DNA of 64,000 bases, taken from positions 31,260 through 95,259 of the forward strand of contig CAZIKQ010000001.1 of NCBI GenBank assembly GCA_964540025.1, read 5' to 3'. The notes under the pieces were generated by a model. That model did not search any database and was not told the origin of the DNA. It worked only from the letters and a program-made list of their open reading frames with translations. Shown one piece after another: positions 4,893 to 35,117 of the stretch (within the stretch, counting starts at the first letter, position 1; each line of letters begins with the position of its first letter). The stretch comes from an uncultured Schwartzia sp. (GTDB taxonomy: Bacteria > Bacillota > Negativicutes > Selenomonadales > Selenomonadaceae). The translations under genes were made by a program, and so were the position numbers.

Positions 4893-5032
4893 CTTATTGT
4901 AATCAGAGGAAACTCAGAAGATATTCATTCGTTGAAGAACAGGCTCATAAAATTTATGCCGGTCAGGTATTTCAAAAAACCAATTTCTCACTGCAATTTC
5001 AAAAATATTTACATCTGCCCTGCCAGGCCCCG

Positions 5033-6952: not shown

Positions 6953-7122
6953 GGAGGTCCTCGCTTTCTCCGGTACATTAGCCGGCTATTGACCCGTGCC
7001 AAAATTTTTCTTTGGTTTGATTTTACCACAAAAGGTTTTCGGAATGAAGATGGTCCGTTGAAAAATCCTCCGTTTAGTGTTATATTCTACGGGATGAATT
7101 TTAATCGGACAAAGGATCGAAC

Positions 7123-8277: not shown

Positions 8278-8295
8278 TGATATTGCAAAAAACAA

Positions 8296-8347
8296 GGCTG
8301 TGAAGATAATCGCTCGCCAATCATCTTCACAGCCTGTTCTTTTTTTA
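8296..8347. terminator. bidirectional intrinsic terminator between convergent genes
   Basis: 12-bp stem GGCTGTGAAGAT (8296-8307) / ATCTTCACAGCC (8323-8334) with T-runs on both strands. Confidence 0.6.
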
Positions 8348-21213: not shown

Positions 21214-21657
21214 TCAGCATATCGCGTCAAGTTGCCCGGAGATAAAATAAACCGATGAAGCTTCGCACATTCTCGTTCCCAGCTCGTCTTGTACCGTGAC
21301 AGTCAGCACGATTACCGTCTGGCCGCAATGCACGACGCTGGCCGCCGCCGTGACGGGGCCAATGCCGCGCGTGTTGCTGATGTAATTGATGTTCAGGTTA
21401 AGGGTCTGCGCAATAAAACCCAGCGTAGCGCAAGCAATGCCGCAGGCCGAATCGATCAATGTGGCCAGCGCCCCGCCGTGAAGCCCCAGCCAATGATTGG
21501 TGTTTATGTCATCAAGGATAGGCATTGCGAGGGTGACGCTACCTTCCGTTAAATTTTCTATTTTAATACCGACCGTTTGCATCATCGCGTTGCCTTTCCA
21601 AATTTCCCGGATAGCCTTGCTGCGCGATTCGTTCATAAACATTTCCTCCACATTCAC
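21214..21657 (-). CDS. PaaI-family hotdog-fold thioesterase
   Basis: 147 aa with the motif WLGLHGGALATLIDSACGIACATLG, typical of PaaI/YbgC-like thioesterases. Confidence 0.75.
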   Translation of the reverse strand: MNVEEMFMNESRSKAIREIWKGNAMMQTVGIKIENLTEGSVTLAMPILDDINTNHWLGLHGGALATLIDSACGIACATLGFIAQTLNLNINYISNTRGIGPVTAAASVVHCGQTVIVLTVTVQDELGTRMCEASSVYFISGQLDAIC

Positions 21658-21694
21658 AATATATAATAAAATTTTCTTTTCGATCTAGATTCCG

Positions 21695-22648
21695 TCAGTA
21701 AAACGCGCTGACGATCGTCATGTAAACGGGGATGGTAATCAGGCCAAAGAGGATTGTAATCATGCTCAAGGCAGCAGCGTATTGGCTGTCGGCCCCGTAG
21801 TTTTTCGCAACAATGGCCATCTGCGTCATGGCTGGCATAGCCGCCTGCATGACGAATACCTTTATGGAAAGAGGCGTTGCGGGAACAAACGGCACAAGCG
21901 TCATAACGCAGAGCGGCGAGATGAAAAAGCGGCCGGTCAAACCCCAAATAACATCGCGTTCAAAGCGGAATGTCCGCAGCGGAATGCGGCTGATTTCGAT
22001 GCCGATGAAAAGGAGCGACAGCAGCGTCGTGAGATTGCCGATATATGACAGCCCCGCGCGCAGAAAAGCTGGCAGGGGACACTCTGCAAAGATGAGAACC
22101 AGCGCAGTCAAAAAGCCAAGAAGAGGCGGCGAAAACAGTTTTTTCAGAATGGTTCGGGAGAAAAACGCCTCCGTGCTTCCCGTTGTATCGGCCAATATAT
22201 TCTGTACGCCGAACGTCCAGAAGAAAATCGTGTTTGCCATATAATAAAGCATCACGGCGGGAATGCTTTCATCCCCAAAGAGGGCGAGATTGACCGGCAG
22301 CCCGATAAAGACCGTATTGGCGATAAAAAAATTCGTTGTAAAAACGCCGCGCCGTCCCTTACGGACATGAAGCAGGCGCGCAACGATATGAGAAACGAAC
22401 ATCGCGAGGAGAATCGAGAGCACCGGCAGCAGGAGATCCGGGGCAAGCCTGCATAACCCCTCGGCGGTAAAGCTTCGCGTGAGGCCAACGACGAGATAGC
22501 AGGGCAGCGATACATTTGTCACCAGCCGTGAGATAACCGCGCCGCTCTCAGCGTGGAACCAGCCCCGCCGATTGAGAATAAAACCCGCGCTAACGACGAT
22601 AATGATCGTAAAAATTCCCTGCAAGGCCTGCAGAACGTACCCGAGCAC
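21695..22648 (-). CDS. AEC (auxin efflux carrier) family transporter, MdcF-like
   Basis: 317 aa with about 10 TM segments. The N-terminus MLGYVLQALQGIFTIIIVVSAGFILNRRGWF is typical of the AEC family, the family that contains the malonate carrier MdcF. Confidence 0.75.
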   Translation of the reverse strand: MLGYVLQALQGIFTIIIVVSAGFILNRRGWFHAESGAVISRLVTNVSLPCYLVVGLTRSFTAEGLCRLAPDLLLPVLSILLAMFVSHIVARLLHVRKGRRGVFTTNFFIANTVFIGLPVNLALFGDESIPAVMLYYMANTIFFWTFGVQNILADTTGSTEAFFSRTILKKLFSPPLLGFLTALVLIFAECPLPAFLRAGLSYIGNLTTLLSLLFIGIEISRIPLRTFRFERDVIWGLTGRFFISPLCVMTLVPFVPATPLSIKVFVMQAAMPAMTQMAIVAKNYGADSQYAAALSMITILFGLITIPVYMTIVSAFY

Positions 22649-22815
22649 AAGAAATCACCCTTTCCGCTATGTTCGCTGCATAGAATATAATTCAGAAATC
22701 ATCATAAAAGCTAAGAGACGCTTATTGCGCACCGCCGGAAAAGAAATGACGAACAACGACGCGATAGGGACAGCATACGGCAGAAGACATACGCGCGCCC
22801 CATATCTACATGAGT

Positions 22816-22845
22816 AAAGCCCAGCAAAAAAAAGCTGGGCTTTTA
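22816..22845. terminator. hairpin at the end of the mad operon
   Basis: AAAGCCCAGC (22816-22825), an A8 loop, then GCTGGGCTTT (22834-22843), 37 nt downstream of the madM stop. The U-tract is better on the plus strand, so the efficiency for madM is uncertain. Confidence 0.4.
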
Positions 22846-22881
22846 CTTTAACAGGTAAAAAATGGCGATAACCAAGACTGT

Positions 22882-23637
22882 TTATCCAAAAATAGCCTGC
22901 GTCAGGAAGTAGAACACCGAAGGGAAGGTCAGGCAGCCCGAACCTGTATAGAATGTCGCGGTCATCGCTGCGTAAGGAACGAGCTTCGGATTGACTGCGG
23001 CCATACCAGCGGCAGTGCCGCTGGTGGTACCCATGAGCCCGCCAAAAATCATAGCGGCCTGCGGATTATCCAAGCCGACGGCTTTGGCCACAAACGGCGT
23101 GCAGATCATAACGAGCACGCTCTTGACGACACCCGCCGCAATGCTGATGGCAATGACCTCCGAGGAAGCGCCAAGCGCCGCTCCCGTCACAGGTCCTACG
23201 ACGAAGGTTGCGACGCCGGCGCCGATCGTATTCAGGCTGACAGCATCACGATAGCCGAACGCATAAGCGATTGCCACACCAGCGATCCACGAAGTCACCA
23301 GTCCTAAAACGAGGGAAATAACGCCGACCGCACCCACCTTTTTAATCTCGCGCAGATCCGCGCCAAATGCCGTCGAAACGATTGCAAAGTCACGGAACAT
23401 TGCCCCGCCCATCATGCCGATACCGGCAAACATGGGAATCAATGCAATTCCTTTAGAGCCGCCGCCAAGGTAAGCAAGGACAAGGCCGAAGAAAATCGCC
23501 ACAGCCGAACCATGAATGCGGCCTTTCGTCAATCCGGCCAGCTTATAAGCGACGAGGTTCGTTAAACCGATAAGCACAAAGGCGAAGATGAGCCCGTTTT
23601 TTGTCAACACCTTGCTGAACATCGCTGCAATATCCAT
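22882..23637 (-). CDS. madM: malonate transporter subunit MadM
   Basis: 251-aa polytopic membrane protein. Its start overlaps the madL stop (TAATG at 23637). The size, order and sequence (MDIAAMFSKVLTKNGLIFAFVLIGLTNL...) fit the MadL/MadM two-component malonate carrier. Confidence 0.8.
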   Translation of the reverse strand: MDIAAMFSKVLTKNGLIFAFVLIGLTNLVAYKLAGLTKGRIHGSAVAIFFGLVLAYLGGGSKGIALIPMFAGIGMMGGAMFRDFAIVSTAFGADLREIKKVGAVGVISLVLGLVTSWIAGVAIAYAFGYRDAVSLNTIGAGVATFVVGPVTGAALGASSEVIAISIAAGVVKSVLVMICTPFVAKAVGLDNPQAAMIFGGLMGTTSGTAAGMAAVNPKLVPYAAMTATFYTGSGCLTFPSVFYFLTQAIFG

Positions 23638-24029
23638 TATTTCACCGCCGTTTCTTCATCGCTGATTTCGCCTTGACCTTTTTTCCCACGGGAAAGGATG
23701 GGAATCAGGGCAAAACCCAGGATAACCCCGAGAAGCCCGCCGCCGATTGCAACCGCGCCGCCAGAGAGCGCGGCAACGACATTTTGAATGGAACTCATCG
23801 CAACGACAATCGGAATGTACATTGCGCTCCAAAACGCGATTCCTTCCTGGCTCTTCTTGTCCAGCCAGCCGTCATCGATGCCTTTATTTGCCAGGATGAT
23901 CAAGAGCAGCATGGCAAAGCCGACACCACCGACATTCGCCTTGACGCCGAGAAGCACGCCGAGCACATCTCCGGCGAAAATGCCGGCGATATAACAAGCC
24001 GCAAGCAGCGCTACACCATAGATAACCAT
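23637..24029 (-). CDS. madL: malonate transporter subunit MadL
   Basis: 130-aa protein with about 4 TM segments (MVIYGVALLAACYIAGIFAGDVLGVLLGVKANVGGVGFAMLLLIIL...). RBS GAGGAGG. It is paired with madM. Confidence 0.8.
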   Translation of the reverse strand: MVIYGVALLAACYIAGIFAGDVLGVLLGVKANVGGVGFAMLLLIILANKGIDDGWLDKKSQEGIAFWSAMYIPIVVAMSSIQNVVAALSGGAVAIGGGLLGVILGFALIPILSRGKKGQGEISDEETAVK

Positions 24030-24202
24030 AAATTTACCTCCTCAGTACAATTTTTTATTATCACCGCAGGAAAAACAGATCCTGAAAACGACGAAACAAC
24101 TGAGAATGTCATACTTTATCGAAAAAATAACCTTCGGCAAAAGGGGCGGCATGGCAACAAAATTCACTCATACCGCCTCACTCTCACCTATTAAAGGAGG
24201 GT

Positions 24203-24412
24203 TTACTCGACGATAGCCAGCACCTGACCGGCACGAACCCTGTCCCCTTCCTTGACCTTGTACTCCTTGACAACTCCGGCGGCAGGGGAAGGAACTAATT
24301 GCTTCATCTTCATAGCCTCCATGACGATGAGAACATCCTTGACGGCAACGCTGTCGCCAACGGCTTTTTCAAAACGGACGATTTTTCCGGGAACGCGTGA
24401 TTTTACTTCCAT
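24203..24412 (-). CDS. madF: biotin carrier protein of malonate decarboxylase, copy 1
   Basis: 69-aa biotinyl domain with the EAMKM biotinylation motif (MEVKSRVPGKIVRFEKAVGDSVAVKDVLIVMEAMKMKQLVPSPAAGVV...). RBS AGGGAG. Confidence 0.85.
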   Translation of the reverse strand: MEVKSRVPGKIVRFEKAVGDSVAVKDVLIVMEAMKMKQLVPSPAAGVVKEYKVKEGDRVRAGQVLAIVE

Positions 24413-24456
24413 GATAATATCTCCCTTACTTTGATTAAAAATTGTTTATTCCTGAA

Positions 24457-24666
24457 TCACTCGACGATAGCCAGCACCTGCCCCGCGCGGACGCGGTCCC
24501 CTTCCTTGACCTTGTACTCCTTGACAACGCCGGCAACAGGGGAAGGAACGAGCTGTTTCATCTTCATAGCCTCCATGACGATGAGAACGTCCTTGACGGC
24601 AACGCTGTCGCCGACCGCCTTTTCAAAACGAACGATTTTTCCGGGAACGCGTGATTTTACTTCCAT
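24457..24666 (-). CDS. madF: biotin carrier protein of malonate decarboxylase, copy 2
   Basis: The start was moved to the internal ATG 24666 (RBS AAGGAG 8 nt upstream). The 69-aa product is identical to copy 1 except for A44V, and the EAMKM motif is present. Confidence 0.85.
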   Translation of the reverse strand: MEVKSRVPGKIVRFEKAVGDSVAVKDVLIVMEAMKMKQLVPSPVAGVVKEYKVKEGDRVRAGQVLAIVE

Positions 24667-24747
24667 GATAAAGTCTCCTTTGTTTTTCTTAAATTTACGG
24701 GTGTGGTTTCGTGACGAACTGTTGCCATCGCATTTCAAGCCGTCACA

Positions 24748-25419
24748 TCACGATAAATATTCCGTTATTTGCTGACGTTCGAGCAGCGCGACGTCGTGCA
24801 GGCTCTTACCCAAAACGGTCCTGGTATCGGCGAAAATCTCAGCGATCTTCACGCCGTAGCCATTGCGGAATTCGACCTCAACATCCATTCTGACATCAGG
24901 GTAAAGACGGCGCGCTTCTTCCGCAAAGGCCGACAAGCGTTCCAGAGAAGCCTCCTGAACGAGCAGGTCAAGGTCAGAATCCAAATCGGTATAAGGGAGT
25001 CCTGTCGCCATTTCAAGCGCCACAGACCCAAGCACCCCAACTCTCAAATTCATGCTCTGCCCGAGCTTCGCCAGCATGACGGCTGCTTCTATACAGCGAT
25101 GACGCGGCGTGACAGGCAAATTGACAACATCATAGGGACGCATCACATGGCTTACTTCGGCGATAGGCACCCGCGCAGGAATGCGGATGCGGTTATCGTC
25201 AAGACGAAGATAATGAACGAACCCGATGGGAATTGTTTCAGGTGAAATTGGTTCATCACGGCGCACGATGCCGGGAATGTCGGCCGGGCCCATGAGAATC
25301 TCCTCTACCATATCGAGCATAGTTCCCTGATAAAAGTGCAGCAGCTGCTCTTGCAGGAACAGCTTGCCCTTATCGGTAACAAATGCGAGATCATGTCTTA
25401 AAAAGACCGTTTTTTCCAT
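24748..25419 (-). CDS. mdcG: malonate decarboxylase holo-ACP synthase (phosphoribosyl-dephospho-CoA transferase)
   Basis: 223 aa with the MdcG-type nucleotidyltransferase block GVLGSVALEMATGLPYTDLDSDLDLLV. It lies within the mad cluster. Confidence 0.75.
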   Translation of the reverse strand: MEKTVFLRHDLAFVTDKGKLFLQEQLLHFYQGTMLDMVEEILMGPADIPGIVRRDEPISPETIPIGFVHYLRLDDNRIRIPARVPIAEVSHVMRPYDVVNLPVTPRHRCIEAAVMLAKLGQSMNLRVGVLGSVALEMATGLPYTDLDSDLDLLVQEASLERLSAFAEEARRLYPDVRMDVEVEFRNGYGVKIAEIFADTRTVLGKSLHDVALLERQQITEYLS

Positions 25420-26501
25420 ACCGGATCTGCCTTCCCATTCTGTTGATAATCAACCTGCGCCTGAACCAAATCATCAAAAAGCTGCGTTTTTACCGGGCCC
25501 TCAACGATGGCGCCATCACATACATTCTTCGTCCCGCCCGTACTCATTGAGTCAGGCACGAGGCGAAGCACGGTGTGATCAGCGCGCATTTTGACGTGTG
25601 GCGACACCCTTACAATGCGTCCCTTGATGCGCAGGATGGTTCGCGCAACCCGCTGGATGGTCGCATTGGAAGCCAGTGTCGTCGCCTCGACGATCGTCTC
25701 GTGCTCCGGATAGGCGCGCTGGCGCCGATAGGTGATGATTTTTCCGGCGCTGTCAAGAATATGACCGCTCCTCGAAACGGGGAAAGTGTCACCCATAGCC
25801 AGGCCGCCCACGACAAGCTCCTGCCGTTCTTCTTCGGCTCCCGAAAATGGCAGCAGGACAATATCATCTCTCAGCGGTACGCCATTGAGTACCAACCAGC
25901 CAAATTCCTGGCATCCGTAAAGATCGTATACCCTCGCCTGAAGCAGGTCAGCGACGGGAAGAAGCTCCAGATCCAGCGGCGTTCCCGCAGTGAGAAGCGC
26001 AAGCCCCTGGGGCAGCTCATCCATGACGCCCATGCGGTGGGCGTCCTCAAACGCAGCCCGTAAAAACGACGATTCGCCGACGACGGCCCGGGGTTTCTGC
26101 TCGTAAAGCGCCACCAAAAAAGCGTCACGGCTTGAACGCGTAAGAAATGAACATTCCAGTCCATGCGCCTTGATGGCGTCGCCTGAAAAAACGTTGACCA
26201 GCGGCGGATAAGTCACGAGCAGGCGGTCGCCGGCCTCAAGTCCAACCCGGTCAAACACGGCCCGGGAAGCGGCTATGCGATGCGACAGCTCCGCATGGGT
26301 GACGCCGACGATATTTTGAAAGGAGGACGACCCGGTGGTAAAGGTGGTATAAGCAAAATTCAAAGGGGTATGAATCTCCTCAATAACATGCGCGCTGGTA
26401 GGCCCGGCGATTTTTTTGTCTGCCAGCGTGAGGCGCGTCATTTCCGCCAGCGTTGGCGCCGAACCGAAGTCCCTGACGAGAAGCGCAATGTCTTCGAGCA
26501 T
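25398..26501 (-). CDS. adenylate-forming ligase-like protein, candidate ACP-SH:acetate ligase (MadH-like)
   Basis: The start was moved to ATG 26501 (RBS GGAGG 8 nt upstream; the ORF-track start is a TTG). It has a P-loop-like TTFTTGSSSF and a PaaK/F390-synthetase-like layout. It occupies the madH position between madD and mdcG. The functional call rests mainly on position. Confidence 0.45.
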   Translation of the reverse strand: MLEDIALLVRDFGSAPTLAEMTRLTLADKKIAGPTSAHVIEEIHTPLNFAYTTFTTGSSSFQNIVGVTHAELSHRIAASRAVFDRVGLEAGDRLLVTYPPLVNVFSGDAIKAHGLECSFLTRSSRDAFLVALYEQKPRAVVGESSFLRAAFEDAHRMGVMDELPQGLALLTAGTPLDLELLPVADLLQARVYDLYGCQEFGWLVLNGVPLRDDIVLLPFSGAEEERQELVVGGLAMGDTFPVSRSGHILDSAGKIITYRRQRAYPEHETIVEATTLASNATIQRVARTILRIKGRIVRVSPHVKMRADHTVLRLVPDSMSTGGTKNVCDGAIVEGPVKTQLFDDLVQAQVDYQQNGKADPVWKKRSF

Positions 26502-26528
26502 AAGAAGCCCCTCCTTCTGCTCCTTCAA

Positions 26529-27419
26529 TCAAGCGTCGATATACTTATCGGCAACGGCGTTAAACTCCGCATCAAGCTTTTCGATGGTACTGATCCGGTG
26601 TGTGCGCCCGCCGCGTTCGTTCCCGAGAATCCCGCGCCCCCACGGTCCCAGGAGTTCATATTTGCCCTCTTTTTTCAGCGCGCGAACCTCGTTTACGTGT
26701 TTAATGACATACTCGCGCATATTCTCCGGCTCCGGAACGATTTCCTGAACGCCGCCGAGCTGATAGAAAAAATTCGCGCCGGCTGCGAAAACAGGATTCG
26801 TCTCCGAGAGCTCCTCGAGGCGCTCGATGTCCATCTTCGTTATCCGCGAGATAGAGGTGAGGGGCATAACGTGAATCATGACGCCCCACGACTTGTCAAG
26901 GGCAAGGATATGATCCGCCTGTAAGCCGTGGCAGAGGAAGGCGCCGGAAATCGCGCGGCCGATGACCATCGCGATGATCGGATGCCCGGCCTTCCGGGCC
27001 TCGGCCAGCGCCAGCTGATACGAGCCCGTCGCCTTATTCATGCCGGCAATCTCTTCCAGCTTACCGGGACCGTTGCCCGGCGTATCGACGACGAGAACGA
27101 TCGCGCGTTTTTCTTCCAGCGGTTTATCTTTATCCGTCTCCATCGTGTCATACACGGCATTGGCCATCTTATAGGCTTCTTCCATCCCGATGACCCCGCC
27201 GAAGACAACTGGAAATCTCTCATTGAAGGCTTCAGCGTCATTGGCAATGATCGTGGCCGGCTTACCCTCCAGCAAAACCGTACCGACAACCGCGCCCGGT
27301 CCATATTCCGGATCCAGCGCAAAGGAACCGATATGTCCCTCATCGAAGCTGTCCTTGTCGGCGATCATGCCGATCGCATCGCGACCGTGACCAACCATGG
27401 TTTTCTCTTCATCAAACAT
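26529..27419 (-). CDS. madD: malonate decarboxylase carboxyltransferase subunit (MadD / MdcE-like)
   Basis: 296 aa with an acetyl-CoA carboxylase alpha-like carboxyltransferase fold (VVDTPGNGPGKLEEIAGMNKA...IIAMVIGRAISGAFL). Confidence 0.8.
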   Translation of the reverse strand: MFDEEKTMVGHGRDAIGMIADKDSFDEGHIGSFALDPEYGPGAVVGTVLLEGKPATIIANDAEAFNERFPVVFGGVIGMEEAYKMANAVYDTMETDKDKPLEEKRAIVLVVDTPGNGPGKLEEIAGMNKATGSYQLALAEARKAGHPIIAMVIGRAISGAFLCHGLQADHILALDKSWGVMIHVMPLTSISRITKMDIERLEELSETNPVFAAGANFFYQLGGVQEIVPEPENMREYVIKHVNEVRALKKEGKYELLGPWGRGILGNERGGRTHRISTIEKLDAEFNAVADKYIDA

Positions 27420-27434
27420 CTGGATTCCCTCCTT

Positions 27435-28394
27435 TTACGGGCGCACGCGGCGCTTAACGACCTTCAGGAATTCGGCGGTTCCCATATCGGGCAGTTTGTC
27501 TGGCGCTTCGTTGCCAAAATGCCGCCAAAGGTCCATCGCGTCGCCCGGTTGAAGGTCGCCGACGAGCTTTACGAGCTCCTGCTGCTCCGCAACGAGCTTT
27601 TGCGAACCGATACGCCTTCCCTTTTCGATCTCATCCATTGGCAGCGCGGCAACCTTTTTGAGCGCTTCATAGAAGGAGCCGATTGTATCCTCGACAAGAT
27701 AATTACAATCGCCGACAATATATTTTTGTTTGCCGCCGGTGGTCCGATAGACCAAAGCTTTGTTGGAAGCGTCAAACTCCTCCTTGCCCATTTCCTGCTC
27801 GATTACCTCGGGTCCCGTAAGGCCAATCCGCCCTTCCTGACTCATGATAATTACATCGGTTGCCGCAGCCACGAAGCCCATGCCGCCAAAGCAGCCGACC
27901 TTACTGCCGACTACCGCAGCGATCGGGATAATCCTGCGGGCGTCCTGAATCGCGTCCATGACCTCCGCATGAGCCAGAAGACCCGCGTTTGCCTCATGCA
28001 GACGAACGCCGCCTGTTTCAAACGAGATGGCGACCAGCGGACGGCGCTCATCATAGTCATCCGGATGCTTCTCTTTGATTTTTGCGGCCACCTTGCGCGC
28101 CAGATGGATCGTCTCCACCATTTTTGCGCCGTTCACTTCGCCAATCGCTCCGCCGATGAATTTCCCTTCCATCGAAACGATAAAAATCGGATGCTTCCCG
28201 AGGAGGCCGACGCCAGTCACCGTGCCATCGTCAAATTCGATCGCCGTGCCCAGCACCGGCAAATGCGGGCTGCAAATTCGATCGCGGGGGCCGAGGAGTT
28301 CAGTAAACGTTCCCTTATCGGCCATGCCAAAAGCGCGCTCTCTTGCACTTGCATTAAAGAAGCTGCTCTTTACCAACTCATCCCAAGCCTTCAT
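27435..28394 (-). CDS. madC: malonate decarboxylase carboxyltransferase subunit (MadC / MdcD-like)
   Basis: 319 aa with an AccD-like carboxyltransferase fold (VTGVGLLGKHPIFIVSMEGKFIGGAIGEVNGAKM...GGVRLHEANAGL). Confidence 0.82.
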   Translation of the reverse strand: MKAWDELVKSSFFNASARERAFGMADKGTFTELLGPRDRICSPHLPVLGTAIEFDDGTVTGVGLLGKHPIFIVSMEGKFIGGAIGEVNGAKMVETIHLARKVAAKIKEKHPDDYDERRPLVAISFETGGVRLHEANAGLLAHAEVMDAIQDARRIIPIAAVVGSKVGCFGGMGFVAAATDVIIMSQEGRIGLTGPEVIEQEMGKEEFDASNKALVYRTTGGKQKYIVGDCNYLVEDTIGSFYEALKKVAALPMDEIEKGRRIGSQKLVAEQQELVKLVGDLQPGDAMDLWRHFGNEAPDKLPDMGTAEFLKVVKRRVRP

Positions 28395-28395
28395 G

Positions 28396-28722
28396 TTACA
28401 CAGCCTCCTTCGCGGTCGCCTCGGCCCACGCCTGACGAAGCCTCATGTAGACGACTATCGGCGTGGCGTTATCATCGTTGATCTCGATGCTGACGTTTCC
28501 GGCGCCCGTGTCGTTTACAAATTTTTTAATCATGCGTTCCCAAACCCTGTCGAAGCCTTTGACGGGCGTCACGACTTTTGCTTTAACGCCGCCCTGTAAA
28601 TCCATCTTCTCCATCAGGCATTCCATATCGCCGGAACCGGTGACGCCGAGATGGGACCATTCCTTTGCCATCTGCTCGCGATTCGCGGATTCAAATGTGA
28701 AATTCAACGTTTGCAAAGCCAT
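28396..28722 (-). CDS. madE: malonate decarboxylase acyl carrier protein (delta subunit)
   Basis: The start was moved to ATG 28722 (RBS AGGAGG). The 108-aa product contains the prosthetic-group serine motif GVTGSGDMECL, as in MdcC/CitD. Confidence 0.85.
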   Translation of the reverse strand: MALQTLNFTFESANREQMAKEWSHLGVTGSGDMECLMEKMDLQGGVKAKVVTPVKGFDRVWERMIKKFVNDTGAGNVSIEINDDNATPIVVYMRLRQAWAEATAKEAV

Positions 28723-28735
28723 ATCTGATTCCTCC

Positions 28736-30409
28736 TTACCAGTTCCGGAATTTAGCCGGCGGATTATAAAGACCCTTTGACCAGACGACAAGATCGTGTA
28801 CATTCTTGGCCGCAAGGCGTTCGCGCGTAGCTTTGGCAACGTCGATACCAAGATCGGCCGGCGTCTTGATAATGCCTTTTTCACGCAGGCGCTGCGTCTC
28901 GTCCGGATCCGCTGCCAGGCCCACCTCTGTGAAGCCGGCGACGCCGCGGATGGCTGCCGTCCTCTCTTCCATGCCTGAGCATTTATGGAGATAAGCGATT
29001 CCTTCCTCCGTCACGATGTGAGTGAGATCGTCACCGTAAATCATCACCGGTTCGATCGGCAGATTCGCGTTTTTAGCCAGGTCAAAGGCGTCAAGCCGCT
29101 CGACAAAGCCCGGCGCGAGCTTTTCACGGAAGGTTTCCTGCAGCTGCACGACCAGGCGCTTACCGCGATGCACCGGCCCCCACATCTGTTCAGCCAATCC
29201 GTATTCCTGACCAACCTTAAGCCAGGCGCCCGAGGAGTGGCGGCGGCCTTTGGGATCGCAGCCCATATTCGGCGCTCCGCCAAAGCCTGCGACGCGGGAA
29301 GCCGTAGCCGTAGAGCTGTTGCCATAGGGATCAATTTGCAATGTGCCGCCGATGAACATATCGACAGCATAGTGACCGGCGACCTGCGAAAAGGCGCGGT
29401 TTGAACGCATCGACCCATCGGGGCCGACGAAGAAAATATCGCTGCGCGCGGCCACATAATCTTCCATCCCCAGCTCTCCGCCAAAGCAGTGAACCGACTC
29501 GACCCATCCGGTCTCTATCGCCGGAATAAGCGAAGGATGCGGGTTAAGAATAAAATTCCTGCAAATTTTGCCCCGCAGACCGAGTTCCTCCCCATAGGTC
29601 GGCAGGAGAAGCTCGATGGCAGCCGTATCGAATCCGATGCCGTGGTTCATCGACTCGACGTTGTATTCACCGTAAATTCCCTTGATCGCCATCATCGCGC
29701 GCAGGACCTGGGAATCCGTGATGAGCGCCGGATCCCGCGTGAAGAGCGGCTCAATATAAAATGGTTTCGGCGATTGGATGACATAATCAACCCAGTCCGC
29801 CGGAATATCAACGCGGGGCAGCTTGTCGACGATCTGATTCACCTGGGCGATGACAATCCCCTGGCGGAATTTTGTCGCTTCCACAATCGCCGGAGTATCC
29901 TCCGTTGAAAAACCCGTGAAGAGATTGCCATCGGCATCCGCCATCGTGGCGGCCACCAGCGCGACGCGGGGCGTCAAATCAACGAAATAGCGGCCGTAGA
30001 GCTCAAGGTATGTATGAATGGCGCCAAGCTCCAGCCGGCCCTCCTGAAGGAACTCGGCAATGCGTCCTGCCTGCGGACCCGAGAACGACATATCGAGCTT
30101 TTTGGCAATGCCCTTTTCAAAGACATCAAGATGCTCCGGCAGCGTCAGAACCGATTGCACCATGTGCAGATCGTGAATCTTTTCAGGATCGACATCGCAC
30201 AGGCACCGAGCGAGAAAATCGGCTTGTTTCTGGTTGTTGCCCTCTATGTTCACCTTGTCAAACGGCTTGATGACAGCCTCGAGCAATGCGACGGCATCCT
30301 TGGCGTCGACGACTTTACCCTCCCTGACAAGGTGCGCCGCCGCCTTCTTTCGGGCTAAGGCATCTTGTTTGCGGGTATCCCAGGTCCGGGATGTCCCCTG
30401 TTTCTCCAT
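28736..30409 (-). CDS. madA: malonate decarboxylase alpha subunit (acetyl-S-ACP:malonate ACP transferase)
   Basis: 557 aa, with MdcA/MadA length and CoA-transferase-like sequence. RBS AAAGGAG. It is the first gene after the long leader. Confidence 0.88.
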   Translation of the reverse strand: MEKQGTSRTWDTRKQDALARKKAAAHLVREGKVVDAKDAVALLEAVIKPFDKVNIEGNNQKQADFLARCLCDVDPEKIHDLHMVQSVLTLPEHLDVFEKGIAKKLDMSFSGPQAGRIAEFLQEGRLELGAIHTYLELYGRYFVDLTPRVALVAATMADADGNLFTGFSTEDTPAIVEATKFRQGIVIAQVNQIVDKLPRVDIPADWVDYVIQSPKPFYIEPLFTRDPALITDSQVLRAMMAIKGIYGEYNVESMNHGIGFDTAAIELLLPTYGEELGLRGKICRNFILNPHPSLIPAIETGWVESVHCFGGELGMEDYVAARSDIFFVGPDGSMRSNRAFSQVAGHYAVDMFIGGTLQIDPYGNSSTATASRVAGFGGAPNMGCDPKGRRHSSGAWLKVGQEYGLAEQMWGPVHRGKRLVVQLQETFREKLAPGFVERLDAFDLAKNANLPIEPVMIYGDDLTHIVTEEGIAYLHKCSGMEERTAAIRGVAGFTEVGLAADPDETQRLREKGIIKTPADLGIDVAKATRERLAAKNVHDLVVWSKGLYNPPAKFRNW

Positions 30410-30729
30410 CTGAAACGCTCCTTTCTAAATTTTGGATACAGGAATCAAGACAATCGGGAGGCGGAGATTTCGCGTTTATGCGCCAGTACCACTCGCCCTT
30501 TTATCCTTTGGCTCGCGTTCTGTAACATCAACGTATCTTTCCTTTGAAATCAGACCCAAACGAAAAATCAAACCGGCGCCCCCGAAACGGCATGAAATTT
30601 GTGACTGCAGAAGAGTCATTCGCCTTTGAAAAACGAATACGGAACGACAGCAGCGCAGCTGCCGCCAAAAAGAAAGCCAGTACCCACCTCCCTTTGTTTT
30701 TCCAAAGCTTCAAATCAGCTCATAGAGAT

Positions 30730-30768
30730 AAAAAAACGCATAAAAAGCAATCGCTTTTCACACGTTTT
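30730..30768 (-). terminator. intrinsic terminator inside the hutP-like / madA intergenic leader
   Basis: The minus strand reads AAAACG-TGTG-AAAAGC-GATT-GCTTTT-TATG-CGTTTT followed by TTTTTAT. This is a two-tier hairpin plus U-run, about 120 nt downstream of the hutP-like stop and about 320 nt upstream of the madA ATG. Confidence 0.55.
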
Positions 30769-30830
30769 CTCATTCGCCACTATTAAATTGTCCCGGCTGC
30801 AGCCGGTTTCTGCATCGCTGGCAGTAAAGC

Positions 30831-30877
30831 CCCGTCCCTACGCTTCTTTTATCCCTGATATATCCCTCATGGACGGA
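30831..30877 (-). promoter_or_regulatory. hairpin displaying three NAGGGAY motifs (candidate protein-binding RNA site)
   Basis: The minus-strand stem UCCGUCC (30877-30871) / GGACGGG (30837-30831) encloses a loop with GAGGGAU (30868-30862) and CAGGGAU (30857-30851). UAGGGAC (30840-30834) overlaps the 3' arm. Confidence 0.3.
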
Positions 30878-30889
30878 CGATGCTGTTTT

Positions 30890-31333
30890 TTAGATATTCA
30901 TGATCCCCAGGCCGGCGCGATCATGATTGGTCATATAATGCAGAGCGGATTGTCCAAAGGTAGCTACGGCAATCCATGTATCGTCACGGACGACGGCGAT
31001 TTTCAGCGCCAGCGATACGCTGGCGTTCGGCCTCAGGACAATTCCCTGCTTAGCCTCTTCCGCCGCGTGAAGAAGCGCGTGGATGCTGCCCGGCTCCTTC
31101 TCTATGACCTCGGAATTGATCGCCGCGCCAATTACCGCGCGATTGAATTTATCATTAAATTCATTGAAGGTCGTCTTACCGCCAACCTCGGTAACTGCCG
31201 CCCTAAACCCTGCTTTCGACACGATTTGTTTGGCGATTGCCTCATCGTGAATCGTTTGAGTCAGGGCCAGAAACATTGCCGCCGTGCCGACACTCTTAAC
31301 GCTGTTCGTCATAAATGATGAATTTTCCATCAT
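30890..31333 (-). CDS. HutP-family RNA-binding antiterminator-like protein
   Basis: 147 aa, alignable end to end with B. subtilis HutP (148 aa). KSVGTAAMFLAL aligns with RRIGRLSVLLLL, SIHALLHAAEEAKQGI with ESHALYHATMEALHGV, LKIAVVRD..DTWIAVATFGQSAL with LRFAVLRG..DWIAVSLYGTIGAP, and the C-terminal HDRAGLGIMNI with HETFGVGINHI. Confidence 0.82.
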   Translation of the reverse strand: MMENSSFMTNSVKSVGTAAMFLALTQTIHDEAIAKQIVSKAGFRAAVTEVGGKTTFNEFNDKFNRAVIGAAINSEVIEKEPGSIHALLHAAEEAKQGIVLRPNASVSLALKIAVVRDDTWIAVATFGQSALHYMTNHDRAGLGIMNI

Positions 31334-31457
31334 AGCTCAGACACCTTTCTTTGGAATCAACAACGAGCATTAAGTCGTTCCCCGCTTAACGCTTGATGAC
31401 GGTACCCTGTAAAGAGTGGAGTCTCCAAAAGGCGCCAATCAGCTTATCAAGAATGAC

Positions 31458-32207
31458 TTAGCGGATACTGATTTCTCCAAAGGAAAATGTTTGAATACAG
31501 CCATCCTCTCTTCGTACCGTGAGAGAACCATCCTCAGAAAGAGCTGTCGCTGTACCACTCCATATCACACGGTCGTCATCTTTAACAATGACCTCTCTAC
31601 CAATGGTATTATTCATCGCGAGCCATGCAGGAAGAATCTTTGACATCCCGTTGGCTTCCCAATCTCTAACATGGATTTTCATGTCGGCGAGCGCTTCCCG
31701 CAGAACCTCATCCGGCGCGTAGACAATTCCCGTCGCAGTGCGGAGCGAAACGGCGCGATCCTTTAATTCGCCAGTCCATGTATCAGGCGGTAAATCGACA
31801 TTGATCCCGATGCCAACGACGAGAAAATCAACGGATCCCTTTGTGTCCAAAGCCATTTCGGCAAGGATACCGGCAATTTTCTTCTCCCCAATGAGTATAT
31901 CGTTCGGCCATTTAAGACAAATGTCGTTCCTTCTATAAAGGCGGCGAAGCGTTGACACGACGCTGACGCCAGCCATCAGAGAGGCTGCCGCCGTACACTC
32001 GGGGGCGACGCTGGGACGCAGGAGCAAGGAAAACCACAGGCCGCCTGCCGGACTGTGCCAGCGGCGCGACTTACGCCCGCATCCCGCTGTCTGCCTCGAT
32101 GCGACGATGACCGTTCCCGAGGGAGCGCCTGCCCTGGCTAATTCAAGGGCCCGGCGGTTCGTAGAGTCAATCTCTTCATGACGCTCTATCTGCCAGCAGC
32201 CGTCCAT
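31458..32207 (-). CDS. birA: biotin--protein ligase (group I, no HTH domain)
   Basis: The start was taken at ATG 32207, which overlaps the madB stop (TGATG). The BPL motifs are IDSTN and ASRQTAGCGRKSRRWHSPAGGLWFSLLLRP. Confidence 0.85.
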   Translation of the reverse strand: MDGCWQIERHEEIDSTNRRALELARAGAPSGTVIVASRQTAGCGRKSRRWHSPAGGLWFSLLLRPSVAPECTAAASLMAGVSVVSTLRRLYRRNDICLKWPNDILIGEKKIAGILAEMALDTKGSVDFLVVGIGINVDLPPDTWTGELKDRAVSLRTATGIVYAPDEVLREALADMKIHVRDWEANGMSKILPAWLAMNNTIGREVIVKDDDRVIWSGTATALSEDGSLTVRREDGCIQTFSFGEISIR

Positions 32208-33418
32208 CAGCCAACCATGTGAATCGTCGAGATAAAGACGCCGCACGCAATCGCGGAGACGATGACGCCCGCGATATTAGCTCCCATGGCAACCGGCATA
32301 ATCACGGCGAACGCATCCTCATCCTCGGCAATATGCTGGGCTATCTTCGCCGTTGTCGGCACGCAGGAAACACCGGCGATGCCGACAACCGGATTAAAGT
32401 CGCCATTTTTCCACTTGTAGATGAGCCAGCCGCCCAGGACGCCAACCACGCCAGACACGGTCAAGGCGCAAACCCCAAGAACAACGAGCGGCGCAACCTT
32501 TGGATTAAGTAAGGTTGAGGCCTCGCAGAGAGTGCCCAGCAACAGGCCAAGCATCATCGTCGAAGCATAGAGCATCGTGCTTTCCAAAAGATCCTGATAG
32601 GGAACGATCTCAGCTTCTTTAATCGCCATCCCAAGGAAGAAGGACATGATAAGCGGCGCAGCCATCGGCAGCAAAACGCAAAGGATCGCGCAGCAGACGA
32701 GAATGAAAATGAATTTTTGAGATTTCGGAACCTCCGGCGCGTCAAAAATTATATCCTTGCCGCGGTACTTCTTAGGGACGAGCCACTTGACAAGTGTCGG
32801 ATAACCGGCATAGGTCAGAGAAAGATAGAGATAAGCAATGACGGAGATTGGCACGAAAAGCTCCGGCGCAAGGATAAGCGAAGTAAAGAGGACGATCGGG
32901 CCGTCTGCACCGCCGATTGAGGCCACCGCCGCCGCTTCATTCGGGGCGAGCCCGAGATGAGTACCGAGAATAAGCGTAGCAAACGTGCCAGCTTCAGCAA
33001 AAATCGCGATGATGATCGACGTCCAGGGATTTGCCAGGATGAAGCTGATTTCACACATTGCTCCGATTCCCATGAACACGAAGCAGGCGACCAGGCTGTT
33101 GCTAAACGTAAGGTTGTAGATAGGCTGCAGAAAGTTGATCTGCATGATGTTCATCAGTTCTGCCGGGTCCGAAACGAGCGGGTCAAGAAAAATCGTGCCG
33201 ATATTTCCCCCCTTGAGGAAAAGGACGCCGCAGTTAATGCAGATCATGCCGATGCCCATTGGTACCATGATAAGGGGCTCCAGCTTACGGCTGAAGCCAA
33301 GATAGGCTAACACAAAACCAAAGGCGATAAGGAGAACGCGAGCGATCGCAATGGTCGGCTCTTGTACGAAGAGACTTGCGATGCCCGGGAAAAGTGTCGC
33401 AACGATATTGCCGTCCAT
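32207..33418 (-). CDS. madB: Na+-translocating carboxybiotin decarboxylase beta subunit (MadB/OadB family)
   Basis: 403-aa polytopic membrane protein with conserved OadB/MmdB/GcdB blocks, including SIGGADGPIVLF. Confidence 0.9.
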   Translation of the reverse strand: MDGNIVATLFPGIASLFVQEPTIAIARVLLIAFGFVLAYLGFSRKLEPLIMVPMGIGMICINCGVLFLKGGNIGTIFLDPLVSDPAELMNIMQINFLQPIYNLTFSNSLVACFVFMGIGAMCEISFILANPWTSIIIAIFAEAGTFATLILGTHLGLAPNEAAAVASIGGADGPIVLFTSLILAPELFVPISVIAYLYLSLTYAGYPTLVKWLVPKKYRGKDIIFDAPEVPKSQKFIFILVCCAILCVLLPMAAPLIMSFFLGMAIKEAEIVPYQDLLESTMLYASTMMLGLLLGTLCEASTLLNPKVAPLVVLGVCALTVSGVVGVLGGWLIYKWKNGDFNPVVGIAGVSCVPTTAKIAQHIAEDEDAFAVIMPVAMGANIAGVIVSAIACGVFISTIHMVG

Positions 33419-33561
33419 TATGCCACCCCCTCTTCATTTTCTTCCGCATAGGGATCGCTCTTCGGCATCAGCTTATTAAGCGCAACAATGGTGCCCATCA
33501 AAAACAGAGAAATCGCGGCTGTAAAGAGATACGATAACGCCGCATAAACCTCGATGCTCAT
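33418..33561 (-). CDS. small membrane subunit, OadG/MmdD-like (not in ORF track, 47 aa)
   Basis: The product MSIEVYAALSYLFTAAISLFLMGTIVALNKLMPKSDPYAEENEEGVA has one TM and an acidic tail. RBS AAAGGAG lies 8 nt upstream. The stop overlaps the madB ATG (TAATG). This position and architecture match the small subunits of Na+-decarboxylases. Confidence 0.55.
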   Translation of the reverse strand: MSIEVYAALSYLFTAAISLFLMGTIVALNKLMPKSDPYAEENEEGVA

Positions 33562-33852
33562 TATAAAACTCCTTTCAGGCAATTCAGGTAAATTAAAACG
33601 TAACTAAATCATTGTTGACGTCGGTTCCGCCGCGCCGCCAGCGGTTTCCGGAATACCGCGTGCAAGACAGGGCGTCAGCCGTTTTTTCGCAAACAAAAAA
33701 GGGAACAAAGAAATAGAACTCATACTCTCTATCTCTATGTCCCCTGAGCTACCCCATCGCCGCGCCAACTGGCGCCACAACGACAAAGGAAAGGAAGATC
33801 GCTTGAATGTCTGCTCATCCAACGGCTATGAAGTTGTTCTCATTCACTTGTG

Positions 33853-33887
33853 TACTCGCGTACTAAATTCCCAAATACTCTCGTACT
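33853..33887. promoter_or_regulatory. two 12-nt direct repeats in the mad divergent control region
   Basis: TACTCGCGTACT (33853-33864) and TACTCTCGTACT (33876-33887), 23 nt start to start, in the AT-rich 585-nt gap between the small-subunit gene and madG. Confidence 0.3.
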
Positions 33888-34145
33888 CACGAACTCTCTT
33901 TATGGATTTTATATACCACACATTATGAAATGTGTCAAGAAAATTTTTGAGTTTTTCCATAACGCCCGCAGGAGATGTTTGCCGGGCAAAACCTTCCGTT
34001 AAAAATTCCCGCATATTTTTTAAGTGTCCTGATTGCCATTGCAATCAATGCGGTGATAAAATGTCACGAATCAAAACTCCAGCCAAATATTTTTCACATT
34101 CTGAAGAAGTATACAGGCGAAACAGAAAAAACAGGAGGTAATCTC

Positions 34146-35117
34146 ATGAAATTGCTCCATGACGAACTTTGGCAACGCATCGGCGAGCTCGCCTTGACAT
34201 CTATGCTGTACGAGGTATCGACAACGCCAAAGCCAGGACTCGTGGACCGCTCGAATTGCGGCGCCCATCTCGACATGGACTTTTTTACTTTCATGACTTC
34301 TGCCTCTTCGCTGCGTCAATTTTTTGATTCGGCCGCTGAGACGGGCTGGAAGGCCGGCTCCGCTTCAAGAGATCCGCTTTCGGTCCTGCACGCTCTGATG
34401 AAGCTGGGCATTGCCGGCGAGAGGCGCATGTTTCGCGCAACGCGCGGCGTCAATACCCACAAGGGCATGATCTTCAGCCTCGGTCTCGTTGTCTGTGCAG
34501 CCGCTTTCGTGGCGCGCCAAAACACCCTCGCGCCGGAGGCGGTCATAGAGACAGCCGCGATGTACGGACGGCATTTTTTTCTGAAGAAATACGGCATGGA
34601 ATACAGTGCGTTGAATAGCGGTAACACGGAAGAAATTGACACGTCGCCGGCTGCCGTCAGCGCTCGAACCGCGCGGCTGCAAACGCGCCGTCAAAATACG
34701 TCGCCCGTTACGCGCGGCGAAGAAGTTTATGTGCGCTATGGTTTGCTGGGCGTCTCCGGCGAAGCTGCCGCCGGATTTCCAAGCGTCCTCACGATTGGCT
34801 TGCCGGCTTATCGTGCCTGCCGGGCAGTAAATATGCCGACAAACGACGCCCTCGTTGAAACGCTCCTGCACCTCATCGCGAAGATGGACGATACAAATAT
34901 TCTGGGCCGTCACGACTTGCCGGCCCTGCGTTACGCGCAGCGTGCCGCCGCCCAAACCCTGGCGCTCGGCGGTATGCGGACCGACGAAGGAAGAGCGGCT
35001 ATTGAAGCGCTTGACCGCGATTTTATCAATCGCTGGATCAGTCCCGGCGGCAGTGCGGATATGCTGGCCATCACTCACTTTTTATATGAACTCCCGCACC
35101 TTCTGAAACAAGGTTAA
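34146..35117 (+). CDS. madG: triphosphoribosyl-dephospho-CoA synthase (MdcB/MadG/CitG family)
   Basis: The start was moved to ATG 34146 (RBS AGGAGG). The CitG/MdcB block is YEVSTTPKPGLVDRSNCGAHLDMDFFTF. It is divergent from the rest of the mad genes. Confidence 0.85.
   Translation: MKLLHDELWQRIGELALTSMLYEVSTTPKPGLVDRSNCGAHLDMDFFTFMTSASSLRQFFDSAAETGWKAGSASRDPLSVLHALMKLGIAGERRMFRATRGVNTHKGMIFSLGLVVCAAAFVARQNTLAPEAVIETAAMYGRHFFLKKYGMEYSALNSGNTEEIDTSPAAVSARTARLQTRRQNTSPVTRGEEVYVRYGLLGVSGEAAAGFPSVLTIGLPAYRACRAVNMPTNDALVETLLHLIAKMDDTNILGRHDLPALRYAQRAAAQTLALGGMRTDEGRAAIEALDRDFINRWISPGGSADMLAITHFLYELPHLLKQG

Follow-up and report, generated by a model that had tools for sequence, protein, structure and literature searches.

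What is a HutP-family gene doing in the middle of a malonate decarboxylase (mad) operon? The question is raised by a 64,000-nucleotide (nt) stretch of DNA from an uncultured Schwartzia sp. (contig CAZIKQ010000001.1), here termed the window, whose minus strand carries a gene for a HutP-like protein among its mad genes. The HutP protein of Bacillus subtilis is a hexamer that is activated by L-histidine and Mg2+ and prevents termination by binding the hut terminator RNA at two clusters, each of three NAG triplets (PMC2425495; PMC12591593). The hut triplets are spaced 2-4 nt and are located in or beside the terminator (PMC2425495, PMC12591593). HutP has so far been treated as a single-system regulator, and a 2025 review of RNA-binding antiterminators gives it for the Bacillus hut operon only (PMC12591593). 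Our literature search returned no paper tying the HutP family to malonate or to any non-hut pathway and nothing relevant on malonate decarboxylase antitermination; the part of the search aimed at mad genes and Negativicutes gave microbiome surveys only. This agrees with an original prediction, made from the letters of the window alone, whose author was not aware of any described HutP homologue that controls a non-hut pathway.

We propose that the HutP-like protein is a HutP-type antiterminator of the mad operon, a reading to which we assign a probability of about 0.68. The system works like hut, and the protein belongs to the HutP Pfam family but stands outside HutP proper. A known mechanism is thereby extended, rather than a new one revealed. 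If the proposal is correct, the HutP scaffold can be adapted to different small molecules and RNA motifs, which would be useful for understanding and engineering protein-RNA switches, and a first candidate regulator is at hand for the biotin-dependent, Na+-pumping malonate decarboxylase found in such abundant gut anaerobes as Phascolarctobacterium, Veillonella and Anaerotruncus. A protein and two RNA targets are now defined, the candidate ligands are few, and the proposal is directly testable.

A HutP-fold protein with an altered ligand pocket

The gene on which the proposal centers is the following.

30890..31333, minus strand: HutP-family gene, 147 amino acids, proposed effector-dependent antiterminator

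Does its product belong to the HutP family? The protein matches the Pfam HutP profile PF09021 with an E-value of 8.9e-32 and 110.5 bits (cut-off 25), and the match extends from residue 15 to residue 145 and covers profile positions 1-128 of 128. The profile search that the original prediction had called for thus bears out its family assignment over the full profile length, and both motifs that it had named, SIHALLHAAEE and HDRAGLGIMNI, are present in the protein. The NCBIfam equivalog model for HutP, NF002838, gives 28.9 bits, below its cut-off of 155, and the identity to HutP proper is ~25%. A profile built from the protein and its relatives recovers HutP chains only from the PDB (E 1.7e-6). 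The AlphaFold2 model, a monomer prediction built from 51 relatives, has a mean predicted local distance difference test score (pLDDT) of 90.9 and a predicted template-modeling score (pTM) of 0.87. When this model is compared with the PDB by Foldseek, all 11 matches with E ≤0.001 are HutP chains from Bacillus and Geobacillus, with a probability of 1.0 and template-modeling scores of 0.68-0.77 (0.70-0.77 for the top six), and the next match has an E-value of ~0.1. The HutP fold is a four-stranded antiparallel sheet with helices on its flanks, and HutP assembles into a homohexamer with two RNA-binding faces. The product has the HutP fold and falls within the HutP Pfam family without being an orthologue of HutP proper.

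To compare the ligand pockets, we mapped the B. subtilis residues by profile alignment and checked their numbering against the B. subtilis sequence. In B. subtilis HutP, we take His73, His77 and His138 to form the divalent-metal site, Glu81, Arg88 and Arg98 to form the L-histidine pocket, and Glu55, Thr56, Thr99 and Glu137 to contact RNA. The metal and pocket residues correspond to the window protein as follows.

His73, His77, His138 (metal): H85, H89, H137, invariant in the 51 relatives
Glu81: E93, kept and nearly invariant (at least 90%) in the 51 relatives
Arg88: no counterpart; it sits in a four-residue B. subtilis insertion (VTRGE) that is absent here
Arg98: replaced by A, S or V

By this alignment, the metal site is retained and the histidine pocket is not. 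The pocket comparison suggested in the original prediction therefore has a divided outcome, in that Glu81 is kept as E93, whereas Arg88 is absent and Arg98 is replaced. Five basic or polar residues, K95, K111, R116, H132 and R139, are invariant or nearly invariant in the 51 relatives and specific to this clade.

The family is small. Searched exhaustively with a profile, 1.84 billion representatives gave 145 clusters (50% identity, E ≤0.001). Eight HutP-domain proteins (P0285, P0288, P0296, P0297, P0306, P0311, P0323 and P0325) are longer, at ~250-261 amino acids, with the HutP domain at the C-terminus and ~120 unassigned residues at the N-terminus; in these, a HutP domain may be fused to a second module.

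The upstream leader and terminator T1

Where would such a protein act? On the minus strand, the genes are ordered small subunit, madB, birA, hutP-like gene, 480-nt gap and madA, and the region upstream of the small-subunit gene contains four elements.

33910..33938, minus strand: sigma-70-type mad operon promoter, read from the sequence
33875..33900, minus strand: GAG tract I, AAGAGAGUUCGUGAGUACGAGAGUAU, at the 5' end of the leader; candidate 'site I' for a hexamer of the HutP-like protein
33695..33744, minus strand: terminator T1, a 17-base-pair hairpin (GGGGACAUAGAGAUAGA / UCUAUUUCUUUGUUCCC) followed by U6
33738-33719, minus strand: GAG tract II, AUAGAGAUAGAGAGUAUGAG, which forms the 5' arm and loop of T1

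The promoter consists of a -35 element TTGACA (33938-33933), a 17-nt spacer and an extended -10 element TGG-TATATA (33915-33910). It escaped our consensus promoter scan because its -10 hexamer ends in A. Promoters of the TTGACA type also precede the leaders of L003-L007, L010, L011, L012, L019, L024 and L026 (the handles denote related loci, described below), and tracts resembling tract I are found just 3' of the promoter in L004, L007, L010, L011, L012, L019, L021, L026 and L028.

Strict 3xGAG matches, defined by a first-to-third span of 13-15 nt, start at 33896 in tract I and at 33735 in tract II. Each tract has a distance of 14 nt between the starts of its first and third GAG, which matches the canonical NAG-N4-NAG-N4-NAG arrangement, and the middle GAGAG allows two registers, with spacers of 3 and 5 nt. 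The 66-nt stretch that contains T1 has a folding energy of -25.0 kcal/mol, and the z-score of the whole leader is -3.5. T1-type terminators are located upstream of the mad genes in all Negativicutes loci, and an alignment of eight orthologous T1 elements contains 15 base pairs, two of them with compensatory changes. The original prediction had placed control in a leader with T2 only and had missed the upstream promoter, the two 3xGAG tracts and T1; the upstream region with T1 is the main leader.

The Rfam search of window positions 29500-34500 gave no family match at E ≤5, and thus no cobalamin riboswitch. In three relatives, a cobalamin riboswitch (RF00174) is located on the sense strand of the mad leader, in tandem with a GAG-armed terminator.

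L002 5356-5545: RF00174, 108.6 bits
L016 3340-3530: RF00174, 107.5 bits
L008 5511-5663: RF00174, 46 bits

A further small hairpin with the conserved loop (G/A)UCCGGA(A/G) lies between T1 and the ribosome-binding site (RBS) of the small-subunit gene (33641-33659, minus strand). It is found downstream of T1 in all Negativicutes mad leaders, including those of L002, L003, L004, L007, L008, L010, L013 and L030, and its stem covaries, with GCGG/CCGC in the window and UGAU/AUCA, CGAU/AUCG or AAU/AUU elsewhere. As the loop is self-complementary, it might mediate contacts between RNAs or act as a palindrome at the DNA level.

The spacer before madA and terminator T2

The gap between the hutP-like gene and madA contains a second terminator and the elements around it.

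30830..30879, minus strand: NAGGGAY hairpin with GAGGGAU, CAGGGAU and UAGGGAC, present in the minimum-free-energy fold
30767..30784, minus strand: conserved box, AAUAGUGGCGAAUGAGA = AAUAGUGGCGAAUGAGAA, adjoining the 5' base of T2 and overlapping it
30725..30771 (core 30768-30730), minus strand: terminator T2, a two-tier A/U-rich hairpin followed by U7, in the gap between the hutP-like gene and madA
30410..30724, minus strand: extra spacer of ~315 nt between T2 and madA, present only in the window and L001

The terminator that the original prediction had described is indeed a two-tier hairpin with its core at exactly 30768-30730, followed by U7. The 72-nt stretch containing it folds at -25.7 kcal/mol, and a simple terminator scan missed it because its stem is A/U-rich. 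In L001, a Selenomonadaceae metagenome-assembled genome that is near-identical to the window (98%), a U.G to C-G change in T2 keeps the pair. The terminators of orthologous spacers differ in stem sequence and have the base GAGAG...CUCUC-U(n) in common.

Which element at T2 might a HutP-like protein recognize? The original prediction had chosen the NAGGGAY hairpin. The hairpin is present and folds where it had been placed, but it is lineage-specific and is not supported as the conserved recognition element. It is restricted to the window and L001 and absent from L002-L010, L013, L016 and L030. The conservation of hairpin and NAGGGA motifs, put forward as a check at the time, is accordingly lacking in all orthologous spacers except that of L001. 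The hairpin could be an extra upstream site. The box, by comparison, recurs in ten Negativicutes spacers with the consensus AAUARUGGNGA-N(1-4)-GAGAG and runs into the 5' arm of the terminator; in the explanation that we favor, it reads AAUAGUGGCGA-N-UGAGA. The box was modeled by a hand-anchored alignment and nhmmer, as MAFFT misaligned the variable-length T2 stems. The model finds the window copy, which was in its training set, at E 1.4e-4, and its best untrained matches are located on the sense strand of upstream leaders (L030 2684-2707, E 0.036, followed by weaker matches in L008, L004 and L010). On these comparisons, the conserved element at T2 is the box and not the NAGGGAY hairpin.

The spacer between the hutP-like gene and madA is 88-160 nt long in relatives and 480 nt in the window, and T2 is separated from the madA start by ~45-60 nt in relatives. 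The extra spacer of the window contains a relic of the ancestral madA RBS, AAAGGGAGGUGGGUACUGG (30695-30677), and the new RBS is located at 30428-30407. Several indels distinguish the extra spacers of the window and L001. A 61-amino-acid open reading frame (ORF) at 30528-30713 was considered as a gene and rejected, given that these indels break its frame; the extra spacer is thus non-coding. A promoter scan of 30410-30730 on the minus strand found no sigma-70-like site, so that the madA promoter named in the original prediction as evidence against its own reading did not appear there.

Within the interval between T2 and the RBS, ~40 nt upstream of the madA start, L002-L010, L013, L016 and L030 share a conserved AUAUAUGAA, of which the window has a degenerate copy, CUCUAUGAG. 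An upstream ORF was rejected as its explanation, since the frame is not conserved among L002, L004, L005 and L013. A -10-like element and an RNA signal are both conceivable.

Recurrence of the gene beside mad genes

Is the pairing of a hutP-like gene with mad genes peculiar to the window? Related loci were collected by a scan of one genome per species (12 loci) and 12 contig look-ups; one further locus, P0201, was uninformative, as its contig is only 2.7 kb long. Together they show the gene in synteny with mad genes in five or more lineages and in several different arrangements.

L002-L010, Acidaminococcaceae, Phascolarctobacterium (nine species genomes): window-like order of small subunit, madB, birA, hutP and madA
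L013-15, Veillonella: order as in the window
L016-18, Acidaminococcaceae: order as in the window
L030-31, Acidaminococcaceae: order as in the window, with two HutP paralogs
L019-20, Anaerotruncus rubiinfantis: citXG-hutP, then small subunit-madB-madA
L021-22, Hominifimenecus: madB-hutP-madA
L026-27: hutP, then small subunit-madB-madA
L028-29: tctCBA-small subunit-madB-hutP-madA

The original prediction had suggested a check for recurrence beside madA and madB in related Clostridia; the gene does recur, and the relatives are Negativicutes plus some Clostridia. Near-identity to L001 puts the window itself among the Negativicutes, as a Selenomonadaceae-like member and not a Clostridium. Such a linkage of one HutP clade to malonate catabolism across classes and gene orders is expected of a pathway-specific regulator. 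No hut genes were found in any related locus examined. Database labels for these proteins read 'HutP family protein' or even 'hut operon positive regulator'.

Outside mad clusters, malonate-related genes are still frequent neighbors: the gene is followed by a family III CoA-transferase (CoA_transf_3) and a carboxyltransferase in L023 and by CoA_transf_3 and MadM in L033 (Thermoanaerobacteraceae). A more distant member, in L034 (Solobacterium sp.), is found in the non-malonate, non-hut context DUF1576-hutP-CN hydrolase-Fe-ADH. The L034 leader (~4540-4630) contains a terminator whose 5' arm, UAUGGAGUAUGGAGAAUUGAG, is a perfect GAG-N4-GAG-N4-GAG, which suggests that HutP-type control extends to further pathways. 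The same 5' arm is preceded by UAUGA/UGAAUGG repeats.

Several Phascolarctobacterium and Acidaminococcaceae genomes contain a second HutP paralog, 38-49% identical, just upstream of the mad promoter; the window has one HutP gene only.

L003 5100-5486; L004 5120-5506; L005 2981-3367: second HutP paralog
L006 5071-5514; L007 5054-5476; L030 2054-2482: second HutP paralog

The leaders of L003, L004, L005 and L007 contain tandem terminators, T1a (GGAGACUGAGUGAG...) and T1b (GGAGACGGAGAGAUAG...), and in L030 the paralog is present and a single T1 was seen. The paralog and the tandem T1a/T1b may constitute a two-signal gate.

GAG-armed terminators accompany the HutP-like gene

The hutP-like genes of mad clusters are nearly always located beside a terminator with a purine- or GAG-rich 5' arm. 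All 30 of the 30 folded terminators that adjoin hutP-like genes have a strong hairpin, a U-run and a GAGAG-type 5' arm, with unrelated stem sequences, and every locus examined has purine tracts together with a HutP-family gene. Outside the terminator and the short purine tracts, leaders of different lineages have little sequence or structure in common. In the Clostridia loci, a separate promoter stands after the hutP-like gene, and a leader with two purine tracts (e.g. CAGAGUUGAGAGUAUGAGUAUAAGG), a terminator and then the mad genes come next, a layout that resembles the two-site hut architecture (PMC2425495; PMC12591593).

A covariance model (R1), trained on the eight T1 elements only, was used to search 281 kb on both strands. 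It scores the window T1, which was in the training set, at 53.7 bits. Its untrained matches, ranked by E-value, begin with L016 T1, L008 T1, L008 T2, L003 T1a and the Clostridia leader terminator of L012, and they continue with Veillonella T1, then further T2 elements, L019 and L026. All sense-strand matches with E <1 in the 281 kb are located at expected positions.

Most leaders have a GAG density of 4-10 per 100 nt, vs 1.8 in mad coding sequence. This comparison and the 3xGAG positional test are more informative than dinucleotide-preserving shuffles, which under-state the enrichment, as the AG and GA dinucleotides are themselves enriched. The strict 3xGAG pattern has 37 matches in ~612 kb from 20 sources, ~13 of which fall in these leaders by hand count. 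The whole window contains seven such matches on both strands, and two of them are leader tracts I and II. The regular expressions GGNGA...GAGAG and GAGAGA were too noisy for statistics and caught Shine-Dalgarno-like GGAGAG sites.

A two-terminator model of mad control

How could these elements work together? In the proposed mechanism, a HutP-fold antiterminator, presumably hexameric, would have been recruited to the Na+-pumping mad operon. Transcription would start at the strong promoter near 33910 and meet T1 first. The effector-loaded protein would bind the GAG tracts on the nascent leader RNA and keep the 5' arm of T1 single-stranded, so that T1 would not form and RNA polymerase would read through into the genes for the small subunit, madB, birA and the regulator itself. 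The protein would then block T2 and allow transcription of madA through madM, and a basal leak through T1 would supply a little protein beforehand. Given that the regulator gene is located behind T1, induction should be self-reinforcing, and its position between T1 and T2 makes it probably autoregulated. What has been observed is that the protein belongs to the HutP family and has its fold, which genes surround it, that the terminators are present, and how the purine-rich elements are conserved and placed; RNA binding, antitermination, hexamer formation and the identity of the effector are predicted from these observations. The riboregulator idea of the original prediction survives in this proposal, with synteny, the GAG-armed terminators and the lost histidine-binding arginines in its favor, but its RNA target and its single gate do not.

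Which small molecule would load the protein? The low equivalog score and the lack of hut genes in the scanned region point to an effector other than histidine. We place malonate, in preference to L-histidine, at about even odds as the effector, given that the histidine-specific arginines are gone and the clade is linked to malonate genes of three different sets. As a bidentate ligand, malonate binds divalent metals well. The retained His triad could still hold a metal that malonate chelates, and malonate is possibly bound as such a divalent-metal chelate. More tentatively, and at somewhat less than an even chance, HutP may stand at the head of a small family of antiterminators that sense ligands and have been re-tuned to other metabolites. 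The present clade would then be tuned to malonate, perhaps as a metal chelate that takes the place of histidine and Mg2+ on the His triad, and would read GAG tracts at two successive terminators, in an autoregulatory loop over energy-conserving malonate decarboxylation in Negativicutes and Clostridia of the gut; as part of the same tentative reading, the loop would in some species be combined with a second HutP paralog or with a cobalamin riboswitch that shares the leader.

Weighing the alternatives

Several observations weigh against the HutP-type antiterminator model. At T2, the window site is weak, with UAG, UGG and one GAG before a degenerate GAGAAAAC arm; GAG density in the T2 spacer is 1.2 per 100 nt and is not enriched, covariance model R1 does not find the window T2 at E ≤10, and nothing in hut RNA corresponds to the GUGGCGA part of the box. 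The Veillonella loci lack T2, and T2 gating is therefore not essential to the system. Triplet spacing at many sites is 3+5 or irregular and not the canonical 4+4. In the protein, the residues aligned to Glu55, Thr56, Thr99 and Glu137 are I, G, S and N, so that RNA recognition may differ. A GAGAG 5' arm forces CUCUC before the U-run, and the 'motif' may partly be a terminator habit of the lineage; the absence of such R1 matches elsewhere in the 281 kb argues against mere habit. Some relatives do carry LysR or GntR genes beside the mad cluster (in L016 and L021, these adjoin a dicarboxylate symporter). Finally, the hutP-like gene of L024 precedes genes for a DcuC-like transporter, an AEC-family transporter and an M20 peptidase, which are not recognizably malonate-linked.

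Could the regulation be simpler, or the partners different? It is very unlikely that, as the original prediction had it, the NAGGGAY hairpin (30879-30830) is the recognition element and T2 the single gate. The hairpin and its three AGGGA motifs exist, are predicted to fold and contain NAG triplets, and its AUGAGGGAUAU resembles the AUGAGAGUAU core of other leaders. However, it is missing from every orthologous spacer save that of the 98%-identical L001, its triplet spacing (8 and 14 nt) misfits HutP geometry, a better leader with T1 is located upstream, and T2 is absent in Veillonella. We also regard it as unlikely, although less so, that T1 and T2 merely set transcript stoichiometry, as ordinary terminators or attenuators without regulation, with madA transcribed from its own promoter in the spacer and the HutP-like protein acting elsewhere or playing a non-regulatory part in the enzyme complex. 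The unusually long window spacer after T2, the AUAUAUGAA of relatives as a possible -10-like element, and the indirect nature of the protein-RNA link would fit such an arrangement. Yet the minus strand of 30410-30730 contains no sigma-70-like site, the spacer is indel-rich and lineage-specific, and relatives leave only ~45-60 nt between T2 and the madA start. Plain termination, moreover, leaves the T2 box and the T1 GAG tracts unexplained, and the pairing of gene and terminator in non-mad contexts argues against an enzyme-subunit role.

A different reader of the RNA, or a different signal, has also to be considered. The GAG-rich leaders might be cis-acting riboswitches or targets of another trans-acting factor, and the structured leader (z = -3.5) and the cobalamin riboswitches in some relatives' leaders, which indicate that these leaders can host RNA sensors, speak for this. 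We nevertheless consider it highly improbable: Rfam has no match at E ≤5 in 29500-34500, the little sequence and structure that leaders share across lineages is unlike an aptamer, and the only structure conserved across lineages is the terminator. In addition, the tracts accompany a HutP-family gene in every locus examined and match known HutP-type sites (PMC2425495). There is likewise little chance that a HutP-type antiterminator at T1 and T2 still senses histidine or another amino acid and ties malonate catabolism to nitrogen status. The metal His triad and the Glu81 equivalent are kept, a close relative in L024 has an M20 peptidase gene nearby and a distant one in L034 has amidase and CN-hydrolase genes; against this stand the deletion of Arg88, the replacement of Arg98, a score far under the HutP equivalog cut-off and the linkage of three different malonate-related gene sets to the clade. 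The HutP-type antiterminator model with an effector other than histidine is therefore the one that we prefer.

The L024 operon (5001-9297; see also L025) is itself headed by the hutP-like gene, whose product is 68% identical to the L012 protein, with a promoter, GAG tracts and a terminator after the gene. The AEC-family transporter is common to this operon and the end of the mad operon of the window.

Relation to known regulatory systems

Comparison with B. subtilis hut reveals a shared plan with several departures. The two systems share the Pfam family and fold of the regulator, its metal His triad and Glu81, and the order of regulator gene, intrinsic terminator and catabolic genes. Roughly as in hut, purine triplets of the NAG type are found within or beside the terminator's 5' arm, and a further tract precedes them (PMC2425495; PMC12591593). 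The mad system differs in its pathway, malonate decarboxylation, and in the absence of the histidine-binding arginines from the HutP-like protein. Its triplets are mostly GAG rather than UAG, with 3+5 or irregular spacing, and tracts I and II of the T1 leader are ~135 nt apart, compared with 12-20 nt in hut. Furthermore, it has two terminators, with the regulator as the fourth gene between them, and an extra conserved GUGGCGA in the T2 box.

Other antiterminators follow the same logic by different means. The CAT-PRD proteins LicT and SacY, the ANTAR proteins EutV and AmiR, and GlpP are likewise pathway-specific proteins that stop a leader terminator when the substrate is present (PMC12591593). 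Unlike the HutP-like protein, they have folds unrelated to HutP and stabilize an alternative antiterminator hairpin (the ribonucleic antiterminator, RAT, or dual hexaloops), none of which is evident here. They are controlled by phosphorylation or partner proteins, whereas the HutP-like protein presumably binds a small molecule directly.

The malonate regulators MdcR (LysR type), MdcY and MatR (GntR type) of Proteobacteria are DNA-binding factors that act at promoters and control mdc or mat genes in response to malonate. No such regulator, and no hut gene, is present among the window ORFs scanned (~10.9 kb to 50 kb), in agreement with the original prediction for this range. The Malonomonas rubra mad cluster encodes a biotin-dependent, Na+-pumping malonate decarboxylase; the window shares its gene set madA, B, C, D, E (acyl carrier protein, ACP), F, G, H, L and M. 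To our knowledge, no HutP-type gene has been described for that cluster.

The mad gene cluster and its divergent neighbor

The mad cluster around the HutP-like gene is a complete, biotin-dependent malonate decarboxylase cluster, and profile matches reproduce the gene order given in the original prediction.

33418..33561, minus strand: small membrane subunit, 47 amino acids from ATG (listed ORF 33418-33582)
32207..33418, minus strand: madB, Na+-translocating carboxybiotin decarboxylase subunit (TIGR03136, E 6.9e-195, above cut-off)
31458..32246, minus strand: biotin-protein ligase, birA type without repressor domain (TIGR00121, E 1.8e-55)
21214..30409, minus strand: structural genes 3' of T2, madA to thioesterase, with family profile matches
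30409-28736, minus strand: madA (TIGR01110, E 6.7e-289)
28884-28396, minus strand: ORF for ACP
24412-24203, minus strand: madF biotin carrier
21695-22648, minus strand: AEC-family transporter, near the end of the mad operon

The small membrane subunit is located upstream of madB in all loci examined. Downstream of madA, the genes for ACP, madC, madD, a madH-like ligase and madG (MdcG) follow, and the distal part of the cluster contains madF, madL, madM, the AEC-family transporter and a 4HBT thioesterase.

A gene for a citG/mdcB-type triphosphoribosyl-dephospho-CoA synthase (33975-35117, plus strand) is divergent from the mad operon and starts ~37 nt from the -35 box of the mad promoter. At this distance, either the two promoters overlap or the annotated citG start is too far upstream. 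A promoter-like site is present within the citG ORF at 34033-34062.

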